From an uncultured Hormoscilla sp. (GTDB taxonomy: Bacteria; Cyanobacteriota; Cyanobacteriia; Cyanobacteriales; Desertifilaceae): a stretch of 64,000 nucleotides of DNA. The DNA lies in NCBI GenBank assembly GCA_963921275.4, contig OZ001293.3, positions 3,072,001 through 3,136,000 on the forward strand, given 5' to 3'. This document shows positions 7,937 to 36,095 of the stretch, one piece after another (position 1 is the first letter of the stretch; every line of letters starts with the position of its first letter). A program made the position numbers and the translations under genes. Below the pieces are notes generated by a model. That model was not told the DNA's origin and did not search any database. It saw only the letters and a list, made by a program, of their open reading frames with translations.

Positions 7937-9320
7937 ATGCCTTCTAGACAAAATCTCGATCCCGTGCAGACCAGGCCCTTGCCAAAGTACCTGGTCTTGC
8001 TGTTTTGTCTGAGCCTGTCATGGAGTCTCGCCTTCGCGATCGCCCCTCGGACAGTAGCATTAGATCCAGTTCCCGAACGCTATCAGCTAGGACTGGAACT
8101 GTACCTAAAAAATTGTGGCACTTGCCATAGGGCCCTGCCACCAGCGGTGATGCCCAGGGAAACCTGGCAACAGCTACTACAAGATGAGCAACATTATGGA
8201 GTCGGTGCGATTCGTTCTAGCCTAACGTGGTCAAACACGGAACGCTAGCCCGGTTTCATTAGCCGGGAACTCTGACCGCATGGGGGTTAAATTCCCCTCC
8301 CCCCAGGTACGGGGGTGACACCGGTCCTCGGTGCTACGAAGCGACATCATCGTGGTGCTAAGCGAGGACTCAAATGTAGGATAACTGGCAGCCTAAGCCG
8401 GTGACGCCGCTAGGAAAGATATCCAAGGTTAGAGCAGGCAAACATGTGCAAGCCTCGTTATAAGGAACCAGCGAAATAAGGCTATATGCGCTGGCCTAAA
8501 AAGGAAATGGTAGCTAGTATTAGTTTTAGACTCTGGCTAATATAGTACTCAAATAGCTCCCGGGGTATAGTGTGGACCTAAAGGTATCGCGAAATGTTGT
8601 TAGGGAACGAAGTAACCTCTCGTGTGCTGTCCATCAGGACAAGTTAGATGTTAAGCGCAAGCCACGGGGGGAGGGATGGCCCAAGAAGCGAATGCCCGGG
8701 GTAATTCCTGGGATAACATCTACAGTAATGTAGATGATGCTGGGTAGCCAGCGCTGACGTGGGTCGGTGATACTAGGAAGCTGCTGGAATGAGTAATCCT
8801 AAAAAGCCACGGAACTAATCCGAAACGCAAGTGGAGGATAAGGTATGGATAACTGGTAAAACTGACTTGAAAATGGTGATACTAACGGTTATCAGAACAA
8901 CCACTCGCTAAACCAGGAAAGGGAAGAAAAGACAGGCGGCAAGGGCTAACGGAAGTAATTCCTATTAAGTCTACCTATGAAAAGGGCCTAGTACCCAGTA
9001 GCCGGATGCGGTGAAAATCGCAAGTCCGGTTCCTCAAGGGAGGGTCGGGAAGCGATTCCCGGCTCGACCCCATCCGACTGCAACTCCCGATCGACCCATC
9101 CCGCCTGCTAATATGGCAATACCTGCAATTTGCCTCTCGTCCCCTAGCATCAGAGGACGAGACTCCTTATAGACTGAGGAACTCTCGTTATTTTCAAGCA
9201 CTTCATCCCCGAGTCAAGTTCACCTCGCCCATTACCATCAGCAGTTGTCTACAATGTCATCCAGATGCTATGAAGTATGACTTCCGTTCCCTCTCCCCCG
9301 AATGGCTTGATGCCCAATAA
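7937..9320 (+). CDS. Dihaem cytochrome c family protein split by a group II intron (exons 7937-8204 + 9076-9320; 170 aa spliced)
   Basis: Signal/TM segment, CGTCH in exon 1, CLQCH in exon 2; removing 8205-9075 gives an open frame ..HYGVGLQLPIDPSRLLIWQYL.. Confidence 0.88.
8205..9075 (+). mobile_element. ORF-less group II (IIB-like) intron, type A, 871 nt
   Basis: 5' GTGCGATTCG; domain V AGCCGGATGCGGTGAAAATCGCAAGTCCGGTT (~9000-9031); domain VI hairpin; no long ORF; near-identical copy at 18001-18871. Confidence 0.93.
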
Positions 9321-9412
9321 GCTAGCATTACGGGCAGGCGATCCGCCCGCCCTACGCAACAAAAGTGGTAAGATAAAAAATAGTCTGCCCTTAAATGTAT
9401 TGATATGCTGCC

Positions 9413-12223
9413 ATGCTGAAGAAATTGCTCGGCGATCCCAACGAACGCAAACTGAATAAGTATAAGCCTTTCGTTAAAGAAGTCAACCTGTATGAGGAGG
9501 AGATAAGGCCCCTATCAGATGAGAATTTGATCGCTAAGACGGCTCAATTTAAACAGCGGCTGTCGAAAGCATCCTCAGATAATGAGTTGAAGGAGATGCT
9601 GGACGAGCTGTTACCCGAAGCATTTGCGGTGGTCCGGGAAGCAGGACGCCGGGTGTTGGGAATGCGACATTTTGATGTCCAGCTGTTGGGCGGGATGGTG
9701 CTCCACGACAGACAGATAGCTGAGATGAAGACCGGCGAGGGAAAAACCCTGGTGGCTACCCTGCCATCCTACCTGAATGCCTTGACCGGAAAGGGAGTTC
9801 ATGTAATCACGGTTAATGACTACCTGGCACGCCGGGACGCGGAATGGATGGGACAGGTTCACCGGTTCCTGGGATTATCGGTGGGTCTGATTCAACAGGG
9901 GATGGGACCGGCAGAACGCCAGAAGAACTATGGTTGCGATATAACTTACGCTACCAACAGCGAGGTGGGGTTCGATTACTTGCGGGATAATATGGCTTCT
10001 GGAATGGCGGAGGTGGTGCAACGGCCGTTCAATTTCTGCATAATTGATGAAGTAGATTCGGTATTGGTAGATGAAGCTCGCACGCCGCTGATTATATCAG
10101 GTCAGGTAGACAGACCGAGCGAAAAGTATATCCAAGCAGCAGATGTGGCCAGGGCCCTGAACAAGGAAAACCATTATGAACTGGATGAAAAGGCCCGCAA
10201 TGTTCTGTTGACAGATGAAGGGTATATTGCAGCAGAGGAGTTATTAGGGGTAACAGACCTGTTTGACCCGAAAGACCCTTGGGCCCATTTTGTCTTCAAT
10301 GGGATCAAGGCGAAGGAACTGTTTATTAAGGATGTTAACTATATTGTCCGCAATGATGAAATAGTGATCGTAGATGAGTTTACGGGACGGGTGATGCCCG
10401 GACGCCGCTGGTCGGATGGCCTGCATCAGGCGATCGAGGCGAAGGAACGGGTAGAAATTCAACCGGAAACTCAGACTTTAGCGACAATAACATATCAAAA
10501 TTTCTTTTTGCTGTACCCGAAACTGTCGGGAATGACGGGGACGGCGAAAACGGAAGAGGCGGAATTTGAAAAGATATATAGTTTGGAAGTGACGGTGGTG
10601 CCCACAAACATGCTGACGGGTCGGCGGGATCTGTCGGATATGGTATATAAGACGAAAGCAGGTAAGTGGCAAGCAGTGGCCCAAAACTGCGCGGAGTTGC
10701 ACCAGCAGGGACGCCCGATTTTGGTCGGTACCACAAGCGTGGAAAAATCGGAGGTAATCTCAAGCTTACTATCCCAGCTGCAAATTTCCCATCAGTTGCT
10801 GAATGCTAAGCCCGAAAATGTGGAACGGGAGTCGGAAATTATTGCCCAAGCAGGACGGAAAGGGGCCCTGACGATCGCCACAAACATGGCCGGACGGGGT
10901 ACGGACATCATACTGGGGGGAAACTGCGACTACATGGCCAGGCTGAAGTTGCGAGAATATTTTATGCCCCGCATTGTCCAACCAGAAGATGAAGATGGTT
11001 TGGGTGCCCTGGGGGTGCCGGGAACTAAACTAAAGGGTAAGAAGGCTCAGGGTTTTGGTCCGGGACAAAAGGTGAAAACATGGAAGGTATCGCCGCAAAT
11101 TTTCCCCACGAAACTGTCCCCAGAAACAGAAAAACGGCTGAAAGAAGCGGTAGACTTCGCAGTCAGGGAGTACGGGGAACGGAGTTTGCCAGAACTCCAG
11201 GCAGAGGATATAGTAGCAGTGGCAGCAGAGTCGGCCCCCACAGATGACCCTGGGATCCAAAAGCTGCGGGATGTTTTCCAAGCCATTCGGAATGAATATA
11301 AGGAATTTACCGATCGCGAACATGAAGATGTGGTGCAACTGGGCGGTCTCTACGTGCTGGGAACGGAACGCCATGACTCGCGCCGGATCGATAATCAATT
11401 GCGGGGTCGCGCTGGTCGTCAGGGAGACCCCGGTTCCACCAGGTTCTTCCTCAGTTTACAGGATAATTTGCTGCGCATATTTGGGGGAGATCGGGTAGCG
11501 GGGATGATGGATATGTTCCGGGTAGAGGAAGATATGCCCATCGAGTCAAAGATGCTCACCCGTTCCCTGGAAGGGGCGCAAAAGAAGGTAGAAACCCACT
11601 ACTACGATATCCGCAAGCAGGTATTTGAGTACGACGAGGTGATGAATAACCAACGTCGGGCGATCTACGCAGAACGGCGTCGGGTACTGGAGGGTCAGGA
11701 CCTGAAGGAACAGGTGATTACATACGCTGAGAAAACGATGGATGAAATCGTTGAGGCTTATGTTAACCCAGAATTGCCCTCGGATGAGTGGGACCTGCCG
11801 AAATTAGTAGGTAAGGTGAAGGAGTTTGTCAATTTACTGGCAGACCTGGAACCGGAACATCTCGAAGACCTCAGCTTTGGGGAAATGAAAACGTTCTTGC
11901 ACGAACAGGTGCGGATCGCCTATGATATGAAGGAGGCTCAGATAGATAAAGTGCAGCCAGGTATGATGCGGCAGGCAGAGCGCTTCTTTATTCTCCAACA
12001 GATCGATACCCTCTGGCGAGAACATTTGCAACAAATGGATGCCCTACGAGAATCAGTAGGTTTGCGCGGTTACGGTCAGAAAGACCCGCTGATAGAATAT
12101 AAGTCGGAAGGCTATGAGTTGTTCCTGGAAATGATGATTTCTATTCGCAGAAATGTGGTATACTCGATGTTCCAGTTCCAACCTCAGCCCCAACCAACTG
12201 TGCAAACGGCAGAAATGGTTTAA
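9413..12223 (+). CDS. secA: Preprotein translocase ATPase SecA
   Basis: [35 protein letters not shown]; 936 aa. Confidence 0.98.
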
Positions 12224-12460
12224 AATTGGAGGTCGTAGGGCGGACGGATCGCCTGCCCGGGAACGCTTTAGCGTTTACTACGAACGGCAAACGCTAAAGC
12301 GTTTACTACGAACAGGGAAACTCTGGGGTCCGAAAAGGGGAGGATAGCCTCTGGCACATCGCCCCAAAGCTTACCCCAAAATAATGGGCTAGGCGAACTA
12401 CATCTTCCGGTCTCCTGACTATCTTTACCCCTAGCTGGCCCAGGAGTTCCTGAGCGCCTC

Positions 12461-14274
<1,814 letters not shown>

Positions 14275-14992
14275 TAGAAAGGAGCATGGAGATAAAACTC
14301 AAAAAGAGATGGCCATATTGTGGGGAGAGGAAGTTACGCAACCAAATATTAGTAGAACCATGCTTTGGTTAGGGATAAGCAGAAAAAAAAGACCTATGGA
14401 TATCGGGAAAGAGATGAAGAAAAACGTCAAGAGTTTTTGCGAAAACTAGATAATCTCGAAAAAAATAAGAGAATATACGTTGATGAGGCGATGTCTCAGG
14501 AGTAGTGCGATTAGCACTCTCCGGAGACATCGCAGGAATAGATAACAGAGAAGAATACCCCTATGGTTACTGCGATCCGAGGAGAAAGATTTTACGCAAT
14601 AAAATCCGGAAAACGAACCGAGAGAGTCAGTTGGATAGCGGCGCAGAGAGAAGATAAGGTCTTTGCTCCTTTAGTATTTAGTGGAGGTTGTAACAAGGAT
14701 TTATTTGAATTTTGGGTAGAATTCTGTTTAATCCCTCAACTTGAGGAGGGAGATGTAGTTATTATTGAAAATGCAAGTTTTCATAAGTCAATATTCGTTA
14801 GGGAACTAATTGAGTCGACTGGATGCGAGCTGTTATACTTACCAACCTCTTCTCCCGCTCTTAATAAAATAGAGCATTGGTGGTTTGTTCTCAAGAATTG
14901 GATGAAACAAAGGATAGACGAATTTGAGAATTTCTAAGACTTCATTGATGCTGCCTTTCGAAAATGTCCTAATGTATTTGCGTAATGCAATA
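14275..14992 (+). mobile_element. IS630-family transposase 3' part, degenerate
   Basis: KKKTYGYRERDEEKR, YVDEA(G), ENASFHK, YLPTSSPALNKIEHWW. Confidence 0.8.
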
Positions 14993-15390
14993 AAAACTCC
15001 TTCTCGGAAATCCTTCGGTCTAAACACTGTCGGCGTAAGACACTTAACTCGATTTCCGCCATATTCAACCAACTGCCATGTTTAGGAGTGTAATAAAATT
15101 CTAACTTATCCAGAATTCTACGAGCTGCCGATGGGCTAAAGGCTTTGTATAGGTGCGATTCGTTTAGCGTAAACTAACTTGACACAAGTCAAGGAGGGGG
15201 ACCGCTACCGGGATTTCGTAAGTCCCGAGAACTTACAGGTGATGGTGGTAAAAGCCCGCCCCTCCAGGTGCAGGAGTGACAGCACCCTCCCCACGGTAGC
15301 GATGGCATCAATCCGTGAAGCGGGAAGGAAAGGCGCTATGGCTGGGAGCCTAGACCGGTCATCGTCGAGCAAGTAACTATGATGAGCGTA

Positions 15391-16225
<835 letters not shown>

Positions 16226-16593
16226 AAGCGAAGGTTTGCAACGTCGTAAAGCCTATCCAGTGTAATAAGGCTGATACACTGGCCCAAAAAGGGAAAGGAT
16301 ACTGGTCATTGGCGGATGTATACCCGACCAATAAGCACTGACAATAAACCCGGCGTAGAGAACCCGTCTAAGGTTACGACCAATCATCTGTAGGAACGAA
16401 GTAACCCGGTTGTAGCACTCTCCATCACCGGTCGATAGATGGAGTAGCCACCACAGGCGTAACATCTGCTCTCCGGAAGGCAGGACGCAACTGGGGGAGA
16501 TTGAGTGGAGAAGCAAATGCCTGTCTGTAATGGATAGAATAAGCTGACGCCCTCACGGTCTCGTCAATTGTGAAGTTGTAAGTAGTAGTGAAT

Positions 16594-19255
16594 ATGTCAC
16601 GGAACTTAGTCGAAAGACAAGAGTATGAATGGAAGACTGTCGCCTGGCGAAAGCTGGAAAGGATAGTTTTTAAGCTGCAAAAGCGAATTTACAGAGCGGC
16701 ACTGGAAGGTAATAAGCAGAAGGTTCGTAAGCTCCAAGGATTACTAAATAGGTCATGGTCCGCGAAGATGATAGCGGTACGGCAGGTAACACAACAAAAC
16801 CAGGGAAAGAAGACGGCTGGTGTGGATGGTGTGAAAGCACTGACCCCAAAAGAACGTATCGAACTGGTAGGTCAAATTAAAGTTACTCGAAAGGCGAAGG
16901 CAAAAGCCACACGAAGAGTGTGGATACCGAAGCCACGAAGGGAGGAGAAGCGGCCATTAGGAATACCAACGATGCACGACCGCGCACTTCAGGGATTGGT
17001 TAAAGAAGCGCTAGAGCCTGAATGGGAAGCGTATATGGAAGCCAATTCCTACGGGTTTAGACCAGGTAGGGGATGTCATGATGCAGTTGCAGCGATATTC
17101 GCTAGCATCAGTCAAAAATCGAAATGGGTGTTAGATGCGGATATTGCGAAGTGTTTCGACGAAATTGACCATTCCGCGCTCCTAAAGAAATTGAATACTA
17201 CGTCACCAATCCGTAAACAAATACGGGCATGGCTAAAAGCTGGGGTGATGGACCGGGGAAGGATGGAATCCACAGAAGCCGGAACTCCCCAAGGTGGGGT
17301 TATATCTCCATTACTAGCCAATATAGCTTTACATGGGCTGGAAGGGGTAGTAATGGGTCTCGCTCACACAAAAAGAGAGAAGGAGAAGTTAACCGTAGTA
17401 AGATATGCGGATGACTTTGTGGTAATACATAATGACCGGTCGATGATTGAGGAAGCTCAAGGAGTGATTGAGGAGTGGTTGAAGGGAATAGGGCTGGAGC
17501 AAAAAGCCGAGAAAACGAAGATATCCCACACATTGGAAGGAGAGAGCCCTGGATTTGACTTCTTAGGGTTCAATATCCGACAATATAAAGTAGGGAAACA
17601 CAGAAGCGGCAAACTCTGTAACGGAACCCCCCTAGGATTCAAGACCCTAATCAAGCCTAGCGATAAATCCATAAGGAATCATAAAGAGCAGCTATCAGAG
17701 ATAGTTCGCCGCCATAAAGGGGCACCGCAAACGGCCTTAATAGCAAGACTAAACCCGATGATAAGGGGATGGAGCAACTATTATAGGACGGTGGTAAGTA
17801 AAGAAACTTACAGCTCTATGGATAACTACTTATGGAAGTTGTTATGGCGATGGGCAAAGAGAAGACATCCTAACAAAACGGGCAAATGAATTGCTAGTAA
17901 GTACTGGGGTATGACCGGGAAAGACCGGTGGAGGTTCGCTGGCAAGTCTAAAGAAGATGGAGGAATGAAGCTAAACCGATACTCTGAAACTGAAATAATC
18001 GGATGGGGTCGAGCCGAAAATCGCTTCCCGACCCTCCCTTGAGGAACCGGACTTGCGATTTTCACCGCATCCGGCTACTGGGTACTAGGCCCTTTTCATA
18101 GGTAGACTTAATAGGAATTACTTCCGTTAGCCCTTGCCGCCTGTCTTTTCTTCCCTTTCCTGGTTTAGCGAGTGGTTGTTCTGATAACCGTTAGTATCAC
18201 CATTTTCAAGTCAGTTTTACCAGTTATCCATACCTTATCCTCCACTTGCGTTTCGGATTAGTTCCGTGGCTTTTTAGGATTACTCATTCCAGCAGCTTCC
18301 TAGTATCACCGACCCACGTCAGCGCTGGCTACCCAGCATCATCTACATTACTGTAGATGTTATCCCAGGAATTACCCCGGGCATTCGCTTCTTGGGCCAT
18401 CCCTCCCCCCGTGGCTTGCGCTTAACATCTAACTTGTCCTGATGGACAGCACACGAGAGGTTACTTCGTTCCCTAACAACATTTCGCGATACCTTTAGGT
18501 CCACACTATACCCCGGGAGCTATTTGAGTACTATATTAGCCAGAGTCTAAAACTAATACTAGCTACCATTTCCTTTTTAGGCCAGCGCATATAGCCTTAT
18601 TTCGCTGGTTCTTTATAACGAGGCTTGCACATGTTTGCCTGCTCTAACCTTGGATATCTTTCCTAGCGGCGTCACCGGCTTAGGCTGCCAGTTATCCTAC
18701 ATTTGAGTCCTCGCTTAGCACCACGATGATGTCGCTTCGTAGCACCGAGGACCGGTGTCACCCCCGTACCTGGGGGGAGGGGAATTTAACCCCCATGCGG
18801 TCAGAGTTCCCGGCTAATGAAACCGGGCTAGCGTTCCGTGTTTGACCACGTTAGGCTAGAACGAATCGCACAGACACGTAAAGGTTAAGGGGACAGCTAG
18901 CCCGTTTGACGGTAATCTGGTTTATTGGAGCAAAAGACTGAGAAAAAGCCCGGATGTGAGCGCTAGAGTTATCAGACTGCTAAAAGAGCAGGATGGTAAG
19001 TGTGTGCACTGCGGACTGAAATTCAAAGATGGCGACAAATGGGAGGTTGACCATATTCTACCAGTTTCTAAAGGAGGTAAAGACTGGTATACCAACCTAC
19101 AGTTGCTGCATGATTATTGCCATGATGTAAAGTCTGCCAGAGATGGTGACAAAGGCCGTATCCATGACAAGGATGGCGAAACTGAGGAGCCGGATGAGGT
19201 GAAAGTCTCACGTCCGGTTCTGAAGACGAGTCGGCGGGGTGACCCGTTGGCTTAG
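16594..19255 (+). pseudogene. ltrA: Group II intron RT/maturase/HNH protein, inactivated by TGA at 17887-17889 and the insertion 18001-18871
   Basis: KRPLGIPT, SYGFRPGR, GTPQGGVISPLLAN, RYADD, domain X, CVHCG..EVDH..NLQLLHDYCH HNH. Confidence 0.93.
18001..18871 (-). mobile_element. ORF-less group II intron type A, second copy, antisense within the RT ORF
   Basis: Reverse complement of 8205-9075 with only a few substitutions seen; removal gives SETEII|RHVKVKG. Confidence 0.93.
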
Positions 19256-20351
19256 TTTAATAGAAGCTTTCACATGAGTATTAAGATGATCTTGAACGAC
19301 GAGAATTTTCCGCGCTTGAGGAAAACATTCATCAACCAAATACTTCATCTGGTGAGCATAGTCGTAAGAAGTCCGTTGGTCAGGGGTTCTCGTTTCTGAA
19401 ATTAACTGTTTGGAACATTCATCAAAACAAACCAAAGGGTAATCTGAATCATAAGCACGGGTGTACAGGTCTAAAACTTCTTCCATCTGACAGACAAATT
19501 CAGCACTTTCTTGAGGTGGAATTATCCAACATTCCTGAAACCAAGGTTTAATTTCGTTTTTTTTAATACCTGTCGTACCGTTTCATGGGAAAGGCTTTCT
19601 ACATATCCTAAAGCTACCATTTGATCGGCGAGGAGTCGTAAAGTCCAACGACTATACCCAGTCGGTGCTTGGCTGCAAGCTAATGCAATTAAATGAGCTT
19701 CGACTTCTCCATCGATACGCCGTAACTGAGATGAGAGGTGGGGACGGGTGGGTTATTGCTTTTTCTAAACCCTCTTCTACAAACCTTTGTCGAACTCTTT
19801 CAATCGTTCTGGTACTAATGTTCAAAGCTTGGCTAATTTCATTATCTGTCCACCCTCCATCGGTTTGATTAATATCGGCTTTAAGTAAGATGCGAGCATA
19901 ATTAATTTTCCTCGCCGCAGCTTTTCCTGTTGTAGTTAGCTTTTCTAGACTTTGGCGTTCTTCTTCTGTTAGGGAAACTATATATCGTTTGGCTGGCATG
20001 GTTTCTCACTCTTTGTTCTCTTCTCTTCTATTATCTGTCATTATTACTTGATAGACTAATAGCAATCGACAATATTTTTTGCAGACAACCCTTCTTTTTT
20101 TTCAATGCTGACCTGATGTACTATATTATTAAAAGGGAAAGGAGTAATTAGAGGATTGAAATTTATGAGGGGGCAAACCCCCTATTGTTGACAAAAACCG
20201 GGGTGATGGATTGAGGTAATTTTCAGATTAAACTCCAATTGAGAATTCAGGTGTCGGTAATACCCATAGCAGAAATCGTAAAGGTTGATCGCCCCCCGGC
20301 TCTGTGCCTAGAATAAACTTAAATAGACTAAGATGTTAGGAGTATTAAGCG

Positions 20352-22973
20352 ATGCAACCGAGTAATCCCAATCAGTTTACGGAAAAAGCCTGGGAGGCGA
20401 TCGCCCGCCTGCCGGACATTGCTAAGGCCAATGGCCAGCAACAGCTAGAAAGCGAACACCTGATGAAGTCCCTGCTGGAACAACCAGGACTGGCTACTAG
20501 CATTTTATCGAAGGCGGAGGTGAACGTGCAACATGTGCGCGATCGCACGGAATATTTCATTAAACGTCAACCGAAAGTATCGAACCCTGGTTCTGTCTAT
20601 CTGGGACGTTCTTTGGATATTCTCCTGGACGCTGCGGAAGCTTACCGCAAAGATTATGGCGACGAGTATATCTCCATCGAGCATCTGGTGCTAGCTTTCA
20701 TTAAGGACGATCGGTTTGGCAAAGAGTTATTGGGCTCATTTAAGCTAGATGAAGCTAAGCTGAAGCAGATTATCTCCCAAATCAGAGGCAACCAGAAAGT
20801 GACTGACCAAAACCCCGAAGGTAAGTACGAAGCGCTGGAAAAATATGGACGGGACTTGACAGAGGCAGCCCGCCAAGGTAAACTAGACCCAGTAATTGGT
20901 AGAGATGATGAGATTCGCCGCACGATCCAAATCCTCTCTCGCCGCACTAAGAATAATCCCGTACTCATCGGGGAACCGGGTGTCGGCAAAACCGCGATCG
21001 CCGAAGGACTGGCCCAACGGATTGTCGCCGGGGACGTACCCCAATCCCTCAAGGACCGCCGCCTGATCGCCCTGGATCTAGGGGCCTTAATTGCAGGGGC
21101 TAAATATCGGGGCGAATTTGAAGAACGCTTGAAAGCCGTTCTGAAGGAAGTTACTGATTCTCAAGGTAACATTATCATGTTTGTCGATGAAATTCACACC
21201 GTTGTTGGTGCCGGGGCGACCCTTGGGGCGATGGATGCGGGCAACTTGCTCAAACCCATGTTATCACGCGGTGAGTTGCGCTGTATTGGTGCCACCACCC
21301 TGGATGAATATCGCAAGTATGTCGAAAAAGATGCTGCCCTGGAACGACGCTTCCAACAAGTTTATGTGGATCAACCCACTGTCGAAGATACCGTTTCTAT
21401 TCTGCGGGGACTTAAGGAACGCTATGAAGTTCACCACGGAGTGAAAATCTCTGATAGTGCCCTGGTAGCAGCGGCGACTCTCTCTACCAGGTATATTAGC
21501 GATCGCTTCCTTCCCGATAAAGCGATCGACCTGATGGACGAGGCGGCGGCCCGGTTAAAGATGGAGATTACCTCTAAACCCGAAGAACTGGACGAAATTG
21601 ACCGGAAAATCCTCCAGTTGGAAATGGAACGCCTGTCCTTGCAAAAGGAATATGATGCTGCGTCCCAGGAACGATTGGAAAAATTGGAACTAGAGTTGAC
21701 GAACCTGAAGGAATCACAACGGGCCCTGAATGCTCAGTGGCAATCGGAAAAAGGTATTATCGACCAAATTCAGGGCATTAAGGAACAGATCGATCGGGTT
21801 AACATTGAAATTCAGCAGGCGGAACGTAACTACGACCTGAACCGCGCTGCGGAGTTGAAGTACGGTAAGTTAAATGAGTTGCAGCAGCAACTGAAGCAAA
21901 CGGAAACTCGTCTAGAGGAAACCCAAACAAGTGGAATTTCTCTGTTGCGGGAGGAAGTGACGGAAGCAGATATTGCCGAAATTATTTCCAAGTGGACGGG
22001 TATTCCCATTAGTAAGTTGGTGGAGTCGGAAATGCAAAAACTCCTCCACCTGGAAGAGGAACTGCATCAGCGAGTCGTCGGACAGGATGAGGCAGTGACA
22101 GCAGTGGCCGATGCCATTCAGCGATCGCGTGCGGGGTTAGCGGACCCGAACCGTCCCGTTGCCAGTTTTATCTTCCTCGGTCCCACGGGTGTCGGGAAGA
22201 CAGAGTTGGCAAAAGCACTTGCTGCTTACCTGTTCGACACGGAAGAAGCGTTAGTGCGAATTGACATGTCCGAGTACATGGAGAAACATACTGTTTCGCG
22301 GTTAATTGGTGCGCCTCCGGGATATGTTGGGTATGATGAAGGGGGACAGCTGACTGAGTCGATTCGCCGGCTTCCTTATGCGGTCATCTTGTTCGATGAA
22401 ATTGAAAAAGCTCATCCCGATGTCTTCAATATTATGCTGCAAATTCTCGATGACGGTCGCGTCACAGATGCCCAAGGTCATACCGTTGACTTTAAGAATG
22501 CGATCGTCATCATGACTAGCAACATCGGTTCCCAGTATATCCTGGATGTGGCAGGAGATGATAGCCAGTATGAAGAGATGCAAAAGCGGGTGATGGAAGC
22601 GATGCGATCGAGTTTCCGTCCCGAGTTCCTCAACCGCATTGATGAAGTGATCATCTTCCACTCCCTCAAGAAAGCACAATTGCGCGCGATCGTCAAGTTG
22701 CAAGTGCAGCGTTTAGAACAGCGGTTAGCAGAACGGAAGATGTCTCTCAAACTGGCCGAAGCTGCCCTTGACTTTTTAGCAGAAGTAGGTTATGACCCAG
22801 TCTATGGGGCGCGGCCCTTGAAGCGAGCAATTCAGCGGGAGTTAGAAACCCAAATTGCGAAAGCGATCCTGCGCGGCGAGTTTAAGAACGGAGACACTAT
22901 CTTTGTGGATGTAGAAAACGAACGTCTTTCCTTTAAGTGCTTGCCCGTGGGGTTACTAACTAAAGTAAATTAA
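20352..22973 (+). CDS. clpB: ATP-dependent chaperone ClpB
   Basis: Two Walker A motifs ([16 protein letters not shown]), coiled-coil M domain, 873 aa. Confidence 0.97.
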
Positions 22974-24467: not shown

Positions 24468-24517
24468 AAGTTATCAGTTGTCTGTTGTCAATTGTCAATT
24501 TTTAATTTTGACTGACT

Positions 24518-24886: not shown

Positions 24887-24921
24887 ACCGACCGTCGTTC
24901 CTTTCAAGAGGTGACCCGGAG

Positions 24922-25567
24922 TCCACGCCTGCTACAAGCATCCCGTATTGCTGCCACCTTCCGGTCCTGACAAGGTTTGGGTGTTGTCACCGCATGAGTC
25001 CAGGTCTTCTCTACCATAACATGGGAATGCCTTTGTTGTGCAACTTTTCCGAAAAATTTGTTGCACATTCTCACCGATGATGGTGGATAATTGTGCAACG
25101 GCAAATTTGTTTATGGGGATTTCTTTATTGGTGACTGGTGCTTCGTCTAAATTCTGCCGGTGCGTTCGACGCGGAAGTTTGATAATCTTTTCGACAACGG
25201 GCCGCTTGGCTTTCAGGCAGAAGCAGCACAAGGGCTGTTGTAATGGAGTCCCGTTCTGGGGTGACTTCGGATCTATCTGTTGCTGGACCGAAGAGCCCAT
25301 CGCGTCTAATGGGGAGACCTGAATTCCACGCCTGCTACAAGCATCCCGTATTGCTGCTACTTCCGTCCTGACAAGGTTTTGGCGTTGTAACCGCATGGGT
25401 TCTCCAGGTCTTCTCCACTATAACATTAGACTGCCTTTGTCGTGCAACTTTTCTGAAAAATTTGTTTGTGGGGATTTTTGTTTGGGTGCTGGCGAGCTAT
25501 TTTTCATATGCCGGTGCTAACTAGCAGGACGTTGGATAATCTTTTCGACAACGGGCCGCTTAGCTTT
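24922..25567. repeat. Diverged direct duplication of the activase 3' end and downstream region (24922-25213 vs 25325-25567)
   Basis: TCCACGCCTGCTACAAGCATCCCGTATTGCTGC and GATAATCTTTTCGACAACGGGCCGCTT each occur twice. Confidence 0.8.
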
Positions 25568-26065: not shown

Positions 26066-26229
26066 ATTAAACTAAGCCAGGGAGTCACCTCCCCGACTCG
26101 TCTTCAGAACCGGACGTGAGACTTTCGCCTCATCCGGCTCCTCAGTAATGCCATCCTTGTCACGGATACGGCTACTACCATCGCTGGCAGTCTTTATATC
26201 ATGGCAGTGTTTGTGCAACAGTTGTAAGT
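26066..26229 (-). mobile_element. 3' remnant (HNH end, DV, DVI) of an RT-type group II intron
   Basis: LQLLHKHCHDIK; GAGCCGGATGAGGCGAAAGTCTCACGTCCGGTTC..GCTTAGTTTAAT. Confidence 0.9.
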
Positions 26230-27215: not shown

Positions 27216-27335
27216 GATGTCTCCTGTGTGCCGTATGTCCCCTGGGACAAGAGCAAGGAGCAGAGATATAGAGATGTCTCCTGTGTGCCGTATGTCCCCT
27301 GGGACAAGAGCAAGGAGTAGAAATATCGAGATGTT
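27216..27335 (+). repeat. 57-bp tandem repeat x2; a third, expanded copy at 27698-27795
   Basis: GATGTCTCCTGTGTGCCGTATGTCCCCTGGGACAAGAGCAAGGAG. Confidence 0.85.
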
Positions 27336-28126
27336 TCCGAGAGCATCTCAATGCAAGCATTTTGGCATTAAATACTGCTAATTGTGAAGAGCTAATTGCG
27401 TATATACGCCGTGCGCGCAGCGCTATGGAAAATGGAAAATAGCCCAATTCTCAATTCTTAATTAACAATTGCTCAATTTTCGATTCTCAAGAAGCCAAAC
27501 AGGGGATGCACCCGCGGAGGCATGCGCCTCCAGCACAGAGGTGCAAAGGCAATCTCCCCAGACTTGGATCTGGGGCATTTGGCCTACAGGAGCGAACTAT
27601 TTCCCGACTGGGGTGCGCGGCAGTGGTCACGCCCTGGCTTCTACACCAAGTATAAGTGGGTTGAAGGGTTCGATGTCCCCATGTCAATGCTAGTCTCGAT
27701 GTCTCCTGTGTGCCGTTCGCGTATCGCGTAGCGTGGCGCAGCCATGCGTGGCGCAGCCATGTCACCACCGGACAAGAGCAAGGAGCAGAGATATCGAAAC
27801 GGCCAGTCATCTTGCCAAAACAGCTTGACAACAGTCCCAACCAGCAACCACGGAGTTGAGTTTCTCCATTGCCGACTCTAAACGCGCGATTGGGAGCATA
27901 TGCATGAACTTATTTATTTCCTTGTTTGACCTGGAGCCAACGAGGATTAAATCTCACCGGAACTAGCAGAACCTGCTTGCCTACGGGGCCATAGCCTCCT
28001 AATTTTGTCCGGAGTATTGATATAATATTGCTTAATTTTTCAGTATAAATACTTAAAAAAAGAAAAAAAATCTGCCCCAAAACCAGAAAATTGAGTTAAA
28101 GTAGGAAGAGAAGAAAGTTCAGATAA

Positions 28127-29335
28127 TTGTATATGGAAATTACAAATCTAGATCATCTGGGATTAGTGGCAGGGATAATCGATGAAATAGGAATAGAATC
28201 GATAATTAACCGGCGCTTGGGAGAACACTCATCGGAGAAAATTAGCTCTGGGAAAGTAGTCAAAGCAATGATAATCAATGCTCTCGGATTGGTATCATCA
28301 CCTTTATACTTATTTTATAATTTTTTTGAAGGAAAATTCATCGAACACTGGAAAAAGAGTTAAGCCAGAGGATTTAAATGATGATAAATTAGGTTTCTGA
28401 TAAATTATATGATAGCGGGACTGGAGAAATTTTAGTAGTTTGATCGGCTGTGAAAAAATATCAAATAAAAACAGAAACATATCATTTGGATGCAAGTTCA
28501 TGTTCATGGAGAGTACAAATATTCAGAAAATGAAGTTGGAGAACCTAGAGCAATAAAGATAACTCATGGATCCTCGAGAGACTATCGACCTGATTTGAAA
28601 CAATTTACAATGGAGTTAATTTGTTCGGGTGATGGCGATATTCCATTGCTATGTCCCTTGACAGGCTTTGGAAACAATGCTGTATACATATAAAAATAAA
28701 CAACAGTCAGTATAACGATGTTTTGCTTTTCTGAAAGACCCAATGTTTTTGGCAGATAGCGTATTTTTTAAATCCCCAAAGCGGATAGAAGCTTTAGGCT
28801 TAATTATGGCCTTATCTTTGTTAGTGTATAAGGTAGCAGAGAGGCAAATAAGAAAGACTCCGGACAGGTTCAGGAATAAAAAATCAGTTAGGTCACCTGA
28901 CTTCTCGACTAACGTTGGATATTTCAATGTTTTCAATCCATACATATCCGCGCTGCGTTAAACAAATTTCAAATATTAATGAGTCGCGTTTACACATTTT
29001 GAAATTCTTTCCTCCAGCATGTCAGCGGTACTATTTACTGATTTAAACCTTGTTAAAAAACGCTACAGAAAAAGTATTGCTTGGGAGAATTGTACCTCTG
29101 AGTAGCTTGATGGTGAGCAATTTTAAGTAAATTTTAGTAATTTTATATCAAGTAGAGGTTGATAGTTGAAGGTAATTATAAATTTTGAGGTTAAATAAGA
29201 GAATCAGGAGTCATATTTGTCTAGATTTAATATGATAGAAGGGTTGATAATGCCCAATGTTCAATATGTCATACATTTGGATTACAAAAATAACTTGTAA
29301 TCATTGCGTAATACATTGTCGTGCGGAATGTAGGT
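28127..29335 (+). mobile_element. IS1634-family transposase remnant with a large internal deletion
   Basis: NLDHLGLVAGIIDEIG, ITHGSSRDYRPDLKQ, FLKDPMFLADSVFFKSPKRIEAL. Confidence 0.85.
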
Positions 29336-29358
29336 TATACCCGCCTACCTACCAGCGA

Positions 29359-29700
29359 TCAGCTATTCGATTGCCGGTTAATCGCTGCCATCAAGCGCCG
29401 ATCCAGCAGCTGATTAACCCAGGTCATCACGTCCGTGGCCCCGTCGTACTTGTCGATCTTGTGGCAAACATCAGAGAAAGTCTGATAAAGGGCCTTGTTG
29501 TAGACATCGGATGGAACGTTATATTTCTCCTGGCAGGAGATTTGGCTCGAGTGCTGGATGGCACAAATCAGCTTGTGGAGGGCGAACCGCCTTCGATGTC
29601 TTCGGGATGCTTCGCAAAAACCCCTCAGACATCGGTGATTACTTTGGGTTGGGTGCTTTTGAGCTTCCAAAGCTAACGGTTCAAGTCTTTAAGGTAGTTT
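29359..29700 (-). pseudogene. Sigma-70-like/HTH regulator N-terminal fragment with an in-frame 39-bp insert
   Basis: EAQKHP..RRFALHKLI..KIDKYD..VMTWVNQLLDRR. Confidence 0.5.
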
Positions 29701-30291
29701 CATTGCGATCGCTGAACTCGATAATCCCATGACAACAGACCCATCTTGGAGTTCAAGAAGGACAAATGAGGAGTTGCCCATGACTTATTACTGACTTAGA
29801 TTGCGCGCAAGGGAAGACAGCTATAATTGGTATAAGCTGATTTTTCCCATAAATAAGCCATCCACATTAACAACATCGATCGTGGAAAAGCGATACCGAC
29901 TGGTGCCGGTGTACGGCATGAGTGACATAGGTAACACTACTGTCGTTAGGCAGCTAGTAGAATAGATTCAGGATGGGTTTGATTTTGTGATTTGGCGTTC
30001 CCTGAGAAATGCCCCAAGCTCAAAAACCTCCTGACTGACACGATCCAATTTATGGCCCAGCAGCGGAAAACGAATTTACCAGACGGGGAAGATGAACTAA
30101 TCTTGCGGCTGATGAAGTATCTGCGCAAATATCGATGTATCCTAGTAATTGAGGATTGGTAGATGGCGATCAGCTGGGCAGCTGGCGATCGATGAACACC
30201 TTCAGTCCGCATGAAGTGAGGCTCATTCCCTTGAGACTTCCTCCTGTCTTTGTCTATTTGCTCAAATCTACCGATTCGATATATGACCGCA

Positions 30292-31400
30292 CAGAATGTA
30301 AAGATGAATAAACGAAATATAGTTTTAATAATAATTGCCGCCTGGTTGGGAATCGTAGGATTATCATGTAAACAAAAGCTACCAGTTGGTAAGAATGGAA
30401 AAGCTCATAATAAATATCATGTCGAACATGTTTGGTGTCCCCAAAAGTTTGGCGACAAGATCAGTTGTGGAGAAGAAATCCTATTTCCAGGAAATGCACT
30501 ACTAAAAAAGCAATCGGGGGTGTCAGCATTTGCGGCTGGTAAGTATAAAGAGGCCATTCGCTTATTAGAGGAGGCAATGAAAGAGCAGTCTAATGACCCG
30601 GAAACCCTAATTTACCTGAATAACGCTAGACTGGCAAAGGAAAAAGCAGAAGCTTATACGATCGCGGTAGCAGCCCCCCTCAACACTGGTGGGAATAGCG
30701 TGGACAATTCGGGGCTGGAAGTTCTGCGGGGGGTAGCTCAAGTCCAAAATCAAATCAATCAGGTACAAAAAATTAATGGCAAGGGTTTGAGAGTGGCGAT
30801 CGCGGATGATGCAGATAACTCTGACCAGGGTAAAAAAATAGCACAAGCTCTGACCGCACAAGATAATATAATAGGCGTCGTAGGTCACTTGTCTAGTGGA
30901 GTAAGTTTGCAGGCTGCTCCTGTTTACGCACAGGGTAAATTGCTATTAATTTCTCCGACAAGCACCTCGATGGAACTCTCAAAAGCGGGGGATTTTTTCT
31001 TTCGTACTGTCTCGACCGATCGGGACAGTGCGAAAGCTTTAATTACCATCCTGCCCAGAGTCCATTAAGGTAAAGTAGCAGTATTTTACAATTCCAATAG
31101 CGATCATAGTCGCTCTCTGCGGAATGAATTCCGCGATCGCTTTCGACCCGCAGGCGAGATCGTAGAGGAATTTGATTTATCTGACCCTGATTTTAATGCA
31201 GTCAGGGCGGTAAAGAAGGCACGCAGAGAAGGAGTCACAGCCCTGGGAAGGAGTCACAGCCCTGGTTTTACTTCCCAACACCTCGACTCGTGCTGAGGCT
31301 AGAGAGGTAGTCAAAGCCAATCAGGGCCGCTATTGTATGGTAGCGGGGGATAGCTTCTACAATTTTGATACTTTAACAAAGGTGGGCAAAGATGCCGTAG
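30292..31400 (+). pseudogene. Branched-chain amino-acid ABC substrate-binding (LivJ-like) protein, frameshifted
   Basis: DPETLIYLNNA, GVVGHLSSG, ISPTSTS, FFRTV; frameshift near 31050; 19-bp tandem duplication 31228-31265. Confidence 0.8.
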
Positions 31401-32132
31401 GCCGCCTCGTCTGTTTTTGGTTTGGGTGGATGGCGGCGGAGTGCGGCAATCCTTTCGGACAATGGGTGATGGATACGTTACACTGGGTTGTGATGGTTGT
31501 GTTGCGACCGGAACAGGCACCAATTGACAAGCAAGTTGTCGCCCACAACTTGGAGCAATAACTTCTGAACGAGTAGTGAAACCTGTACTTGCGTCAGACC
31601 TGCGGGAGCTATGGAAAAAGCTGAAACCTTTACTGTGACTGCCTTTTGACCAACCTGATTCCCTTATTTACTCAATGATATAGAGCATACAAACTAGATT
31701 ATACAAAGCGTTTATAAATTTTCAATTATGCGTCCAAATATAACTCATATTTATCGACTCAAAATTAAATTTTAAAATCTTATTATAGCAAAAATTTATA
31801 TTTTGGAGAGGTCTATTAGACCCATGGCTTAGCATAGTTTTTTACCTTCACAAACTTTTAAAACAGCCTCTAATATCTGGATGGCTTCAGCTTTCTCTGC
31901 GGGTGTTAAGTAGCTATGTTTCTAATTCTTTGACTGTCATCGGTACTGTTTGATTTGTGAATTATATCTCTCGTAAATTATATCTTATTATCGTCCCGAT
32001 CGGGGTTTGAAGAGCATCATATTTCCCCTCATTGCTAGTTCCGGCGGAAGCAGAGCCTCTTCTGTTCCCTGACTCTGGCAGGGAACGAGAGATAACCATT
32101 GTCTCCTATGGTAATGGTTAATTTTTCACCTC

Positions 32133-32586
32133 TCAAGTCAGCGGACCAAAATAAAAGGTATCGGTAGATGGATTAACCGCGTAGCAAATTCTTTCGAGAA
32201 AACTAATTTGACCGATAAACGAGGGAAAATTTCCCCAGTATTCCTCGACATCAGGAATAAACGCCGTAGCATCTACATCCAAATCTTCGCCCTCGTCATG
32301 GGGCAAAGTTATAGTCAGACGAATCACACTCCCCTCTAGTCGCATCCCTCTAATCAGCATGGTTAATCTTTCCAGGGGAGTAACGCGGTCCAATCGGACC
32401 TGTCTAGCAATTCTAGGTGCGATTATCGGATAAGGTGCGCCTGTATCAAGGATTCAGTTTTGATCCCTTCGATTTTCACAAGTAAAATAATCCGATTGGT
32501 GGTTTCACTGGGAGTTGCAGGAGCATAATCATAACGAATTGCGCCTGTAGCAAAGGTTTCACCGTCCGGCAAAAGTAGTAGAGCCA
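32133..32586 (-). pseudogene. Retropepsin-like (DTG) protein, frameshifted near 32455
   Basis: MALLLLPDGETFATGAIRYDY.., ILDTGAPYPII, FIGQISFLERI..VNPSTDTFYFG. Confidence 0.6.
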
Positions 32587-32949
32587 TTAATAAATCACCG
32601 TCACAAATACATCATTTAGATCGCCAATCTGCTCAACTAATTCATCAAGGGAACTGCCCGTAGCCAATAATTCCCCATCCCGGACTGCTACCCATTGATT
32701 TAGATAGTTACGGTTACGGCGTTGCTGCCTTACCCACTCTCGACTCTTTTGTAAACCTTTGTCAATTGGTCTTTTCACGGAAGTTGCTCGAGCTGGTTTC
32801 AAAATATTAACACAGTTCTGGATATATTCCCGATCGGGAAAATGCTCGATCTCCTGAATTGAAAGCTGCCGTGCCTTGAGGAAATCCCCGATCAACAATG
32901 CTTGTCGCATAGCTTGGATAAAATATTCTGGGCTGTTGTCATTCATCAT
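32587..32949 (-). CDS. Hypothetical protein with DUF5678-like C-terminus
   Basis: YLNQWVAVRDGELLATGSSLDEL. Confidence 0.65.
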   Translation of the reverse strand: MMNDNSPEYFIQAMRQALLIGDFLKARQLSIQEIEHFPDREYIQNCVNILKPARATSVKRPIDKGLQKSREWVRQQRRNRNYLNQWVAVRDGELLATGSSLDELVEQIGDLNDVFVTVIY

Positions 32950-33709
32950 ATCTAAATTGCTCTATCTTATTTTATTATAGGGCAGATCTCAAATAATGTC
33001 ATCCGCCTCGTATCGGGGTTTGATGAGCATCATATTTTCCCTCATTGCTAGTTCCAGCGTAGCGTGTCCGCAGAGCCTATGAATGGGCGGTTCCCTGCCT
33101 TCGTCAGGGAACGAGAGAATTAAGGGAACTCAAGCGTAAATAATCGGACAAAATTATCCAGTAGTCAAGATGCACCAGTTGGTACAGCGATATAAGTTGG
33201 GGAATTTATTTTTTGGAACTCCCTAAGCCCGCGCAGGCGGGCAAGGTTGCTCGTCGCCCCACCCCGGCGACGGGGGTCTCCCTAGGAACGGGTTCCAGCG
33301 TAGCGTGTGGTAGCTAAGCTAAGCTTGCGTCGGGATGCGCCTGGATATAGCGTCCATCTTCGCCCAGCCCAGAGGACAGTTGCATAAGTGTCTCCACACC
33401 TGCCAACCCTGGAACTTATCTTACTAGACTTGTTGTATCAGATAGATATGGTTTTCCCGAGTGGTAGCTATCCGGACTGCCTTCTGCTGATAGATGACTG
33501 TAATGCTGATGCTTGCAGTCCTCTCCTCTCCCACCGGCTACCCCGAGCGCTGCCCCTCTAGCAGCTATCTTGTCCGGATTACTACTTAGTCAAAATTACT
33601 ATGGCTTTCGGTATAAACACGATTTATTTGTTACCCAATCCGCCATCAGGAGTAAAAAAGCTCCCAACCCGATCGCACTAACACTAAGTAACTCAAACAG
33701 GAGACATTC

Positions 33710-33985
33710 ATGATGCTGAAAAAATTTATGTCAATTTTCTACAAGGTAAAGGACTTCCTAGAAGATCCCAGTCCTGATACCGAAACCCCACTGTCTGGCT
33801 TCACAGGAGAAGCCACAGTATCTGAGACCATCGTCGGTCCCGATCGAGAAGGGCGCGTGTATTTTCGAGGCACTTGGTGGCCCGCCCGCTGCGAGCAATT
33901 TGTCACTCTCAAGCCCGGCGATACAGTCCAAGTTATCGATATGAGCAACATCACCCTGCTCGTAGAACCAGTCCATTTTAGCTAA
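33710..33985 (+). CDS. NfeD-like OB-fold protein
   Basis: ATVSETI..GRVYFRGTWWPARC..V.VID..NITLLVEP. Confidence 0.85.
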   Translation: MMLKKFMSIFYKVKDFLEDPSPDTETPLSGFTGEATVSETIVGPDREGRVYFRGTWWPARCEQFVTLKPGDTVQVIDMSNITLLVEPVHFS

Positions 33986-34112
33986 TCCTAACTTATCCAG
34001 TAAAAAGTATGGTAGCTATCCGGACTGCCTTCTGCTGATAGATGACTGTAATGCTGATGCTTGCAGTACCCGATCGCACTAACACCAAGTAACTAAAACA
34101 GGACACATTTAT

Positions 34113-34370
34113 ATGATGCTGAAAAATTTTATGTCAGTTATCTACCAGGTAAAGGAATTCCTAGAAGATGCCAGTAAAGATGCCGAAACTCCACTGTTGG
34201 GCTTGACAAGAGAAGCAAAAGTGTCTGAGACCATCGTCGGTCCCTATCAAGGCGTTTATTTTCGAGGCACTTGGTGGCCCCGAGCAATTTGTCACTCTCA
34301 AGCCTGGCGATACAGTCCAAGTTATCGATATGAGCAACATCACCCTGCTCGTGGAACCATTCCCTTGTAG
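34113..34370 (+). pseudogene. Tandem duplicate of the NfeD-like gene, frameshifted
   Basis: High similarity to 33710-33985 with small deletions; upstream ~57 bp also duplicated. Confidence 0.8.
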
Positions 34371-34563
34371 CTAATTATAGCTGCTAATTAAAAAGTCAAG
34401 TAAATATCGTTTTACTTTTTACTTAAAAGCCATCGGGAACTAAGAAAACCAGATGGCCTTTTAAGTTCGTAGTTCGTAGTTCGAGATTGCTTCGTTCCTC
34501 GCAACGCTGCGCGGTTCGTAGTTATTTTAAAGTCAAGAATGAAAAACCTATCCAAGCTATCCC

Positions 34564-35292
34564 ATGAGGAAAGTTAAACCCGCGATCGCAGTCTGCAACC
34601 TCTGCTTCTCCTATCCAGACAAGCAGCATGTCTTACAGAATCTGAGTCTGACAATACAGCCAGGAGAACGGGTCGGACTAATTGGTCCCAATGGTGCTGG
34701 TAAAACCACCTTCTTTTTATTGATTTGCGGTGTCTTGCAGCCAACCGCTGGTGAAATTGTACTCTGGGACGAGCCAGTGGTAGCTGGGGAGTTTCGTCCC
34801 GAAATCGGCCTAGTATTTCAGAATCCCAACGATCAGTTATTTTCCGCATCAGTCCGAGATGATGTCGCATTTGGTCCGGAAAATCTTGGCTTGTCACCGG
34901 CGGAAGTAGATGACCGCGTACAAGCAGCCCTCTCCCTGACAGGTGTTTTAGAACTAGCTGCGCGAGTACCTCACCACTTGTCTGGAGGAGAAAAGCGGAT
35001 GGTCGCGATCGCCTCTGTCTTAGCGATGCACCCCCAGCTAGTGATTTACGACGAACCCAGCGCCAACCTGGATCTGCGAGCCCGGTGTCGCCTGATCGAC
35101 TTCTTGCAAGACTCAAACGAAACCCTAGTCATTTCCTCCCACGATTTAGAACTGATTCTGGAACTGTGCGATCGGGTCCTCTTACTTGACCAAGGCCAGA
35201 TCGTCGCCGATGGCCCCCCCCAGGAAGTGATGGCCGATTGGCAACTCATGCAGGATCATGACCTAGAGTGCGATTCGTTTAGCATAAACTAA
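34564..35292 (+). CDS. cbiO: ECF transporter ATPase (CbiO family); last codons supplied by an inserted intron
   Basis: GPNGAGKT, VFQNPNDQLF, DDVAFGP, LSGGEKR, DEP. Confidence 0.88.
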   Translation: MRKVKPAIAVCNLCFSYPDKQHVLQNLSLTIQPGERVGLIGPNGAGKTTFFLLICGVLQPTAGEIVLWDEPVVAGEFRPEIGLVFQNPNDQLFSASVRDDVAFGPENLGLSPAEVDDRVQAALSLTGVLELAARVPHHLSGGEKRMVAIASVLAMHPQLVIYDEPSANLDLRARCRLIDFLQDSNETLVISSHDLELILELCDRVLLLDQGQIVADGPPQEVMADWQLMQDHDLECDSFSIN

Positions 35293-36095
35293 CTTGACAC
35301 GAGTTAAGAAGGGGGACCGCTGGCAGGGTTTATTAGCCCTGACAACTTACAGATGATGGTGGTGAAAGCCCACCCCTCCAGGTGCAGGAGTGACAGCACC
35401 CTCCCCACGGTAGCGATGGCATCAATCCGTGAAGCGGGAAGGAAAGGCGTAATGACTGGCAGCCTAAACTGGTCATCGCTAAGCAAGTAGCTATGATGAG
35501 CATAATGCGAAGATTTGCAACGTCGTTACATGAAACCAGCGGAATAAGGCTAAACACGCTGGCCCAAAAGGGAAAGGATACAGGTCATTGGCGGATTCTG
35601 GACCGACCAATAAGCACTGACAACAAACCCGGCGTATGGAATCCATCTAAGGTTACGACCAATCATCTGTAGGAACGAAGTAAACCGGTTGCAGTACTCT
35701 CCATCACCGGTCGATAGATGGAGTAGCCACCACAGGCGTAACATCTGCTCTCCGGAAGGCAGGTCACAACCGGGAAAGATTGAGTGGAGAAGCAAACGCC
35801 CGTCTGTAATGGATGGGATAAGCTGACGCCCTCACAGTTTCGTCAATTGTAAAGTTGTAAGTAGTAGTGAACATGTCACGGAACTCAGTCGAAAGACAAG
35901 AGTATGAATGGAAGGAGGTGCCCTGGCAAGAGCTGGAGCGCCGAGTCTTTAAGCTACAAAAGCGAATTTACAGAGCGGCACAGGAAGGCAACAAGCAGAA
36001 AGTTCGCAAGCTCCAGGGACTATTGAACAGGTCATGGTCCGCGAAGATGATAGCGGTTTGTCAGGTAACGCAACAGAACCAAGGGAAAAAGACGG
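35268..36095 (+). mobile_element. 5' part of an RT-type group II intron (DI-DIV and RT start), truncated
   Basis: GTGCG at 35268; homologous to 15153-15390 + 16226-16816; RT N-terminus to QGKKT. Confidence 0.9.

Follow-up and report, generated by a model that had tools for sequence, protein, structure and literature searches.

The window analysed here is a 64,000-nucleotide (nt) stretch from an uncultured Hormoscilla sp. (GenBank assembly GCA_963921275.4, contig OZ001293.3, positions 3,072,001 to 3,136,000 of the forward strand), and it contains a cluster of group II introns. Self-comparison and alignments resolved seven elements (Table 1): four introns without an open reading frame (ORF-less; A1, A2, B and C), one intron that encodes a reverse transcriptase (RT1), the 5′ part of a second intron of the reverse transcriptase (RT) type (RT2) and one 3′ fragment. 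The window contains six 5′ ends of group II introns, whose common sequence, GTGCGATTCGTT(C)TAG, is found six times compared with 0.26 expected; all six begin with GTGCG, in agreement with the GUGYG start of group II introns. The domain V/VI ends are marked by six Rfam RF00029 matches with scores of 44.4–59.3 bits (threshold 40). In related introns of the cluster, the short guide stretches have been exchanged nearly completely, with the core of the ribozyme retained, and each variant is complementary to its own insertion site.

A1 interrupts a dihaem cytochrome c gene in the sense orientation. The two exons cover positions 1–34 (exon 1) and 42–116 (exon 2) of the Pfam DHC profile, and the spliced reading HYGV-GL-QLPID agrees with the intron-less homologues P0002 and P0003. 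This reading is reproduced only by an intron with a length of 871 nt and the end ...CCCCATCC. A type A 3′ end at 9078 or 9079, taken from an alignment to the GACT end of B and C, was ruled out, since both the cytochrome homologues and the colinearity of RT1 need 871 nt; the RT1 ORF, in which A2 is nested, becomes colinear with the ORFs of the relatives L040 and L010 once 871 nt of A2 are removed. B and C end in GACT (13437–13440 and 16222–16225, respectively) and intron A in ATCC, while the 3′ exons start with GACT for A1 (9076–9079) and GATT for A2 (18000–17997, minus strand). This pattern could be a coincidence, a common 3′ exon preference or the trace of a former 3′ splice-site shift.

The exact boundaries of B follow from two empty paralogous sites, which read ...CTATTC/TCGCAG... 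in other copies of the insertion sequence (IS) that B occupies. C interrupts domain I of RT1; RT2 and two Hormoscilla relatives, L010 and L040, run through the same point without interruption. The insertion point (15385–15390/16226–16230) seems to fall in the loop of a short domain I hairpin of RT1, AGCGTA/AAGCG, and L040 has GC-GAAA-GC at this position. RT1 itself is antisense in an IS630-type transposase gene, since the minus-strand transposase frame runs on across the RT1 site and its C-terminal part matches DDE_3. For the truncated RT2, Rfam gave no domain V downstream as far as position 38000. The 3′ fragment is 87.5% identical to positions 19118–19261; it has no domain I and, thus, no guide loops.

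Table 1. Introns, guide sequences and associated features of the window, with positions counted from its first nucleotide. EBS, exon-binding site; IBS, intron-binding site; D5/D6, domains V and VI (scores are for RF00029).
Feature	Position	Strand	Remarks
Dihaem cytochrome c, exon 1	7937–8204	+	Pfam DHC; tblastn
Dihaem cytochrome c, exon 2	9076–9320	+	Pfam DHC; tblastn
Intron A1, ORF-less, 871 nt	8205–9075	+	5′ end GTGCGATTCGTTCTAG; D5/D6 44.4 bits at 8997–9073
A1 EBS2 TATAAGG	8459–8465	+	IBS2 CATTATG, 8192–8198; 6/7 paired
A1 EBS1 AGACTC	8528–8533	+	hairpin 8517–8543; IBS1 GAGTCG, 8199–8204; 5/6 paired
Intron B, ORF-less, 868 nt	12573–13440	+	D5/D6 48.1 bits; inserted in IS copy
B EBS2	12833–12839	+	4/7 paired
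B EBS1 GGTTAG	12901–12906	+	IBS1 CTATTC, 12567–12572; 5/6 paired (4 Watson-Crick, 1 G-U)
Empty type B target	61300–61320	+	junction 61309/61310; other copy of same IS
Empty type B target, second	junction 36354/36353	-	in the IS truncating RT2
Intron RT1, RT-encoding, outer intron	15153–19261	+	D5/D6 57.6 bits
RT1 EBS2 AAAGCCT	16248–16254	+	IBS2 AGGCTTT, 15140–15146; 7/7 paired
RT1 EBS1 GTATAC	16318–16323	+	IBS1 GTATAG, 15147–15152; 5/6 paired
RT1 protein, N-terminal 433 codons	16588–17889	+	Pfam RVT_N, RVT_1, GIIM; in-frame stop 17887–17889
RT1 protein, C-terminal HNH endonuclease part	18956–19255	+	Pfam HNH, E 5.2e-14; tblastn, L040 residues 466–596
Intron C, ORF-less, 835 nt	15391–16225	+	D5/D6 47 bits; sense, nested in RT1 domain I (twintron)
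C EBS2	15643–15649	+	5/7 paired
C EBS1 TGCACT	15712–15717	+	IBS1 AGCGTA, 15385–15390; 5/6 paired
Intron A2, ORF-less, 871 nt	18001–18871	-	D5/D6 44.6 bits; nested antisense in RT1 ORF
A2 EBS2 TATAAAG	18617–18611	-	3/7 paired
A2 EBS1 AGACTC	18548–18543	-	IBS1 GTGTCT, 18877–18872; 5/6 paired
3′ fragment of RT-type intron	26066–26206	-	59.3 bits; end of HNH coding, D5 and D6; tblastn
Intron RT2, RT-type, 5′ part only	35268–~36089	+	cut by IS; at 3′ end of ABC ATPase ORF (ABC_tran match)
RT2 EBS2 TACATGA	35527–35533	+	2/7 paired
RT2 EBS1 TCTGGA	35597–35602	+	IBS1 CCTAGA, 35262–35267; 5/6 paired (4 Watson-Crick, 1 G-U)

The pairing of EBS1 and EBS2 of a group II intron with IBS1 and IBS2 of its 5′ exon sets the splice site as well as the DNA site of reverse splicing. 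A sequence-only reading of the window had proposed five different loop hexamers as EBS1, each matching its own insertion site at five of six positions if G-U pairs are allowed. The five loop hexamers and six exon hexamers are present as quoted, and the span assigned to them, 8517–35612, opens with the first nucleotide of the A1 hairpin and closes with the final nucleotide of the RT2 hairpin. The proposed pairing is found at all six sites; counting Watson-Crick pairs only, it amounts to 5, 5, 4, 4, 5 and 4 positions for A1, A2, B, C, RT1 and RT2, respectively. In A1, the five pairs are all Watson-Crick and the mismatch is an A·G at position -1. The non-cognate combinations of loop and exon (28, with the A1/A2 cross cells left out) mostly score 0–3 (25 cells), with two scoring 4 (RT1 loop with B exon and B loop with A2 exon) and one scoring 5 (RT1 loop with A2 exon).

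The position of the hexamers in the folded RNA supports their assignment as EBS1. The RNAalifold consensus of A, B and C is a six-domain fold of 234 pairs, 55 of which are compensatory among the three distinct sequences. Domain I spans columns 7–415 (closing helix 7–12/410–415) and is followed by domains II, III and IV, domain V (812–847) and domain VI (852–884). The hexamer is within a nine-base terminal loop (columns 330–338), whose stem contains the compensatory pairs 323:345, 324:344, 326:342 and 329:339. In nine sequences of the RT lineage, namely those of seven relatives and of RT1 and RT2, an eight-pair EBS1 stem is paired in 98.6% of the cells, compared with 14–41% in shifted-partner controls, and four of the eight pairs change on both sides. 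Folding, which might have placed the loops elsewhere, puts the start of the hexamer at the third base of the terminal loop in both lineages. No domain I–IV family of Rfam gave a match with an E value of 1 or less, so our own alignments are the basis of the domain I structure.

With the register fixed at this homologous position, the pairing at the six sites has per-site p values of 0.0155, 0.0155, 0.077, 0.020, 0.017 and 0.046 against the 127,990 hexamers of the window (1.6e-5 combined by Fisher's method). Shuffling the 30-nt flank of each site gives p values of 0.011–0.068. When the exons are permuted among the six introns, a sum as high as the observed 30 is obtained for only 2 of the 720 orders, the true one and its equivalent with A1 and A2 exchanged.

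Relatives were collected by scanning genome contigs with a 15-base 5′-end pattern, which gave at least 105 loci, many of them chance matches in unrelated bacteria. About 16 loci among the matches listed have a homologous domain I (from Hormoscilla, Microcoleus, Leptolyngbya, Nostoc, Crocosphaera and others). With the register left free in a window of ~17 nt, the introns at 19 sites pair with their own exon at 5.21 positions on average, compared with 4.21 for permuted exons (sd 0.17, 0/5000); L066, L055 and L079 were dropped from this test as misaligned, and L105 and L089 are without the loop. EBS1 pairs at all six positions in 6 of the 13 scored relatives (L040, L010, L024, L057, L025 and L020) and at only four in L019 and L050. 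Thus, both the terminal-loop position with its covarying stem and the permutation tests support the assignment of the loops as EBS1 matching their own 5′ exons.

Several of the relatives have features of their own. L057, from a metagenome-assembled genome (MAG) of Oscillatoriales, is ORF-less and ~805 nt long (~2211–3015, minus strand), and L019 contains a CyVA-1 RNA match at 2406–2483 (60.6 bits). Two Hormoscilla MAGs share an RT intron at the same site (exon ...CTTTGA), and one of them has a further copy with the exon ...CCTTGG (L040, L105 and L089). Each of these exons would pair 6/6 with the EBS1 TCAAGG, counting one G-U; the L089 locus ends before the loop. The A/B/C lineage has no copy among the matches listed (at least 105 loci) or in the plasmid collection, and the RT-type intron has only distant relatives in the latter (19 records, 18 at 60–80% identity and one at 80–90%).

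EBS2 consists of the seven bases that follow a conserved CGT ~65 nt upstream of EBS1, a stretch that is unpaired in the A/B/C consensus fold (columns 262–271), and pairs with exon positions -13 to -7. In the relative L024, as in RT1, the pairing is complete (7/7). Over 17 sites (seven rows dropped), 4.35 positions pair with the own exon compared with 3.06 for permuted exons (0/5000). Like EBS1, EBS2 co-varies with its flank; EBS3 is considered below.

The guides have diverged far more than the rest of the RNA. RT1 and RT2, which had been noted as very similar except for the loop, differ at 12 of 13 guide positions (EBS1 6/6, EBS2 6/7) but at only 98 of 816 positions elsewhere (12.0%; Fisher 2e-10). 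The 7-column windows with at least six differences between them define only three places: EBS2, EBS1 and the stretch 286–296. B and C differ at 10 of 13 guide positions compared with 16.9% elsewhere (Fisher 4e-6), A and B at 10 of 13 compared with 30.9% (Fisher 0.001), and A and C at 8 of 13 compared with 30.6% (Fisher 0.03). A1 and A2, on the other hand, differ at only 3 of 871 positions, one in EBS2 (position 260) and two in domain VI, indicating that type A, at least, moved recently. The targets of A1 and A2 are two unrelated sites that nevertheless agree at 12 of the 19 positions between -15 and +4 (p 5e-4 in a binomial test), and each is one mismatch from the ideal target GAGTCT, which fits a target-directed, mismatch-tolerant insertion.

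Within exon positions -16 to -14 (8185–8189; 18891–18887, minus strand), an A occupies -15 in A1, A2, C and RT1, four of the six sites, and A1 also has a C at -16; these sites are too few for a test. A-15 and C-16 are the two distal positions that were selected in target assays of T.el4h, according to the available text of Mohr et al. (2010, PMC2882425).

RT1 has the window's only long RT ORF, which is interrupted first by an in-frame stop and further downstream by A2; in tblastn with the intact L040 protein, the match reads through the stop to residue 469. The closest solved relative of the RT1 protein is the T.el4h maturase (6me0_C, E 5.7e-91). RT2 retains 75 RT codons (tblastn), and A, B and C have no RT remnant detectable by tblastn with the L040 RT (E 1e-3). 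The A/B/C introns share 50–56% identity with those of the RT type across 555 aligned columns and are placed on a long branch of their own. Based on the relationship to 6me0_C and on matches to the plastid domain V families RF04357 and RF04356, the introns are probably of the chloroplast-like, IIB class. Relaxed protein specificity, as inferred in the sequence-only reading, finds no support in the window, and the helper protein of the A/B/C lineage may be a different, unseen one.

Taken together, the cluster very probably consists of chloroplast-like (IIB-type) introns of two lineages, one encoding an RT/maturase/HNH protein and the other ORF-less, whose guides have diverged so that each fits its own site and which have spread to new sites. 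We infer that the variants arose by guide divergence, followed by insertion at the new sites. Many of these are other mobile elements (an IS, the IS630-type transposase gene, RT1 domain I and the RT1 reading frame), where insertion probably does little harm. The recent move of type A appears to have tolerated a mismatch and would have been powered by a protein encoded outside the window. The cytochrome frame is intact across the A1 junction, which argues that A1 is likely still to splice; if the cytochrome is made, A1 must do so, either by self-splicing or with a maturase encoded elsewhere.

A number of observations weigh against this interpretation. The intron copies examined are those within the 64-kb window, and no intact RT gene is found within the window. 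Two identical type B targets are empty, so B is not saturating its sites. One position fails to pair in each of the six local EBS1 interactions, three of which rely on a G-U; as every local pairing carries a mismatch while 6 of 13 relatives pair 6/6, the local copies may be ectopic insertions or drifting relics and not products of clean retrohoming. In the fixed register, EBS2 pairs poorly in A2 (3/7) and RT2 (2/7), and both need a shift by one base to reach five Watson-Crick pairs. For EBS3, the best candidate is the column of A1 position 364, which follows the EBS1 hairpin within GTA-N-AG. In 9 of 10 introns it pairs with the base that opens the 3′ exon, a result that is not significant, being equalled in 143 of 1000 label shuffles. 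Finally, the statistical support for the cognate pairing is weak when the register is left free in each loop and only the window is used (per-site p 0.07–0.42, Fisher 0.067). The window alone, therefore, does not establish the register; it is settled by the structure and by the relatives from other cyanobacteria, which fix the position.

The alternative that survives best reverses the order of events: introns would have reached poorly matched sites by rare ectopic retrotransposition, and their guides would then have drifted, or been selected, toward the new exon for splicing. A1 and A2 have the same EBS1 at different sites with one mismatch each, and thus mismatched insertion does occur. One of the three differences between them is in the 7-nt EBS2, where, in the slipped register, it changes a G-U to an A-U pair with the exon of A2 itself. 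Moreover, two empty IS copies have exactly the exon of type B, which is, thus, ancestral, placing the imperfect match on the intron side, and A1 lies in a conserved gene in which a Gly codon dictates the base at -1. Against this order stand the introns of T. elongatus, whose six EBS families each form a clade and whose copies mostly have at most one mismatch; as far as the available text goes, the authors read them as EBS divergence first and retrohoming afterwards (PMC2882425). In addition, most of the local copies are in dead mobile DNA, without obvious selection for splicing, and the window contains too few copies per type (six sites) to order the events. We consider the reversed order possible but unlikely.

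Slightly less likely again is that all copies are immobile relics, whose guide differences would be old history without present activity. Such a graveyard would account for the in-frame stop and two nested introns of RT1, for the fragmentary state of RT2 and of the piece near 26 kb, for the empty type B targets and for the mismatch in every pairing, but the near-identity of A1 and A2 speaks against it, as does the conserved cytochrome gene, whose frame is intact across the A1 junction. At the other extreme, type A could be mobile now in this presumably mesophilic cyanobacterium, driven in trans by the protein of an approximately half-identical intron or of an unseen cognate RT intron and accepting targets with one mismatch, with its antisense jump having disabled RT1 for good; we regard this as doubtful, to about the same degree as the graveyard. 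Chance complementarity, in which loop bases vary unconstrained and five of six pairs with G-U are easily found, could appeal to the free-register values in the window and to high non-cognate cells such as the RT1 loop with the A2 exon, but it is highly improbable given a register at the same structural position in all introns, the 2 of 720 permutations, the free-register result over 19 sites, the independent signal of EBS2 and the six relatives that pair completely at the same place.

The window has a cyanobacterial character, with relatives of both its introns and its cytochrome gene in cyanobacteria. Its remainder contains what we take, from reading the translations, to be SecA (9413–12223) and a ClpB-like ORF (20352–22973). 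A signal recognition particle (SRP) RNA gene (49.2 bits; 24910–25006, minus strand) and a weaker second copy (35.5 bits, under the Rfam threshold; 25319–25402, minus strand) are ~400 nt apart. The 150 nt around the two copies are 86.5% identical, which suggests that the ffs region was duplicated locally. Two small paralogous ORFs in tandem (33667–33986 and 34068–34375) are 86% identical, the second being apparently frame-shifted, and the ORF at 51396–52700 contains an internal 82% repeat (51402–51949 and 52074–52605).

The resemblance to the Thermosynechococcus introns, suggested in the sequence-only reading, is real. Like TeI3/TeI4 of T. elongatus (PMC2882425, available text), the introns described here are chloroplast-like/IIB cyanobacterial introns with EBS families at matching sites (five EBS1 types at six sites in our window), and the RT1 protein is related to 6me0_C. 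Both sets have ORF-less introns beside RT-encoding copies, twintrons, IS targets and an RT ORF that is disrupted by an IS. The ORF-less introns of T. elongatus, however, are single-deletion derivatives with ORF remnants, in contrast to A, B and C, with no detectable remnant and 50–56% identity to the RT type. The inner introns of T. elongatus lie between the first two ATG codons of the ORF, whereas here one is in domain I and the other is antisense in the ORF. Mobility and the ‘driver’ proteins that mobilise ORF-less introns were demonstrated by assay in T. elongatus (PMC2882425), whereas any mobility here is read from sequence comparison. The local cluster is also set apart by the mismatch carried by all six pairings.

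The C/RT1 arrangement is similar to a twintron of Trichodesmium erythraeum, in which the inner intron is in domain I of the host intron, beside a tertiary-contact element (Pfreundt and Hess 2015, PMC4649490, available text). That twintron interrupts a protein-coding gene and both of its introns have ORFs, whereas here the outer intron, RT1, interrupts a transposase gene in antisense orientation and the inner intron, C, has no ORF. According to the same source, the ORF-less introns of T. erythraeum are thought to depend on maturases in trans. Genome-scale expansions of chloroplast-like introns in cyanobacteria have also been reported (PMC8919778, as far as its available text goes). Within the parts of the literature accessible to us, on Hormoscilla group II introns and, from 2011 on, on EBS1 divergence and retrohoming in cyanobacteria, no description of this intron set turned up. 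Nested ORF-less and RT-encoding introns are reportedly found among archaeal group II introns as well, which are said by Dai and Zimmerly (2003) to home into the ORFs of related introns. Unlike these, A2 is antisense in RT1 and, thus, cannot be spliced out of the RT1 transcript.

Thus, we conclude that the Hormoscilla cluster is a new example of a known mechanism, the proliferation pattern of T. elongatus, and not a new mechanism. Since the same principle has already been described for the T. elongatus introns, the targetron interest raised in the sequence-only reading is modest, and little is added for gene-targeting tools. The cluster is the second natural case, independent of the first, in which group II introns have spread by guide change, in a setting apparently other than the thermophile that gave rise to the idea. 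It brings together a distinct lineage of ORF-less introns, a twintron in domain I and an RT gene hit in antisense orientation. The near-identical A1 and A2 constitute a natural target pair for asking how much mismatch reverse splicing tolerates. If type A is indeed mobile now, as tentatively considered above, its jump into RT1 would represent a conflict between intron lineages and not simple co-proliferation.

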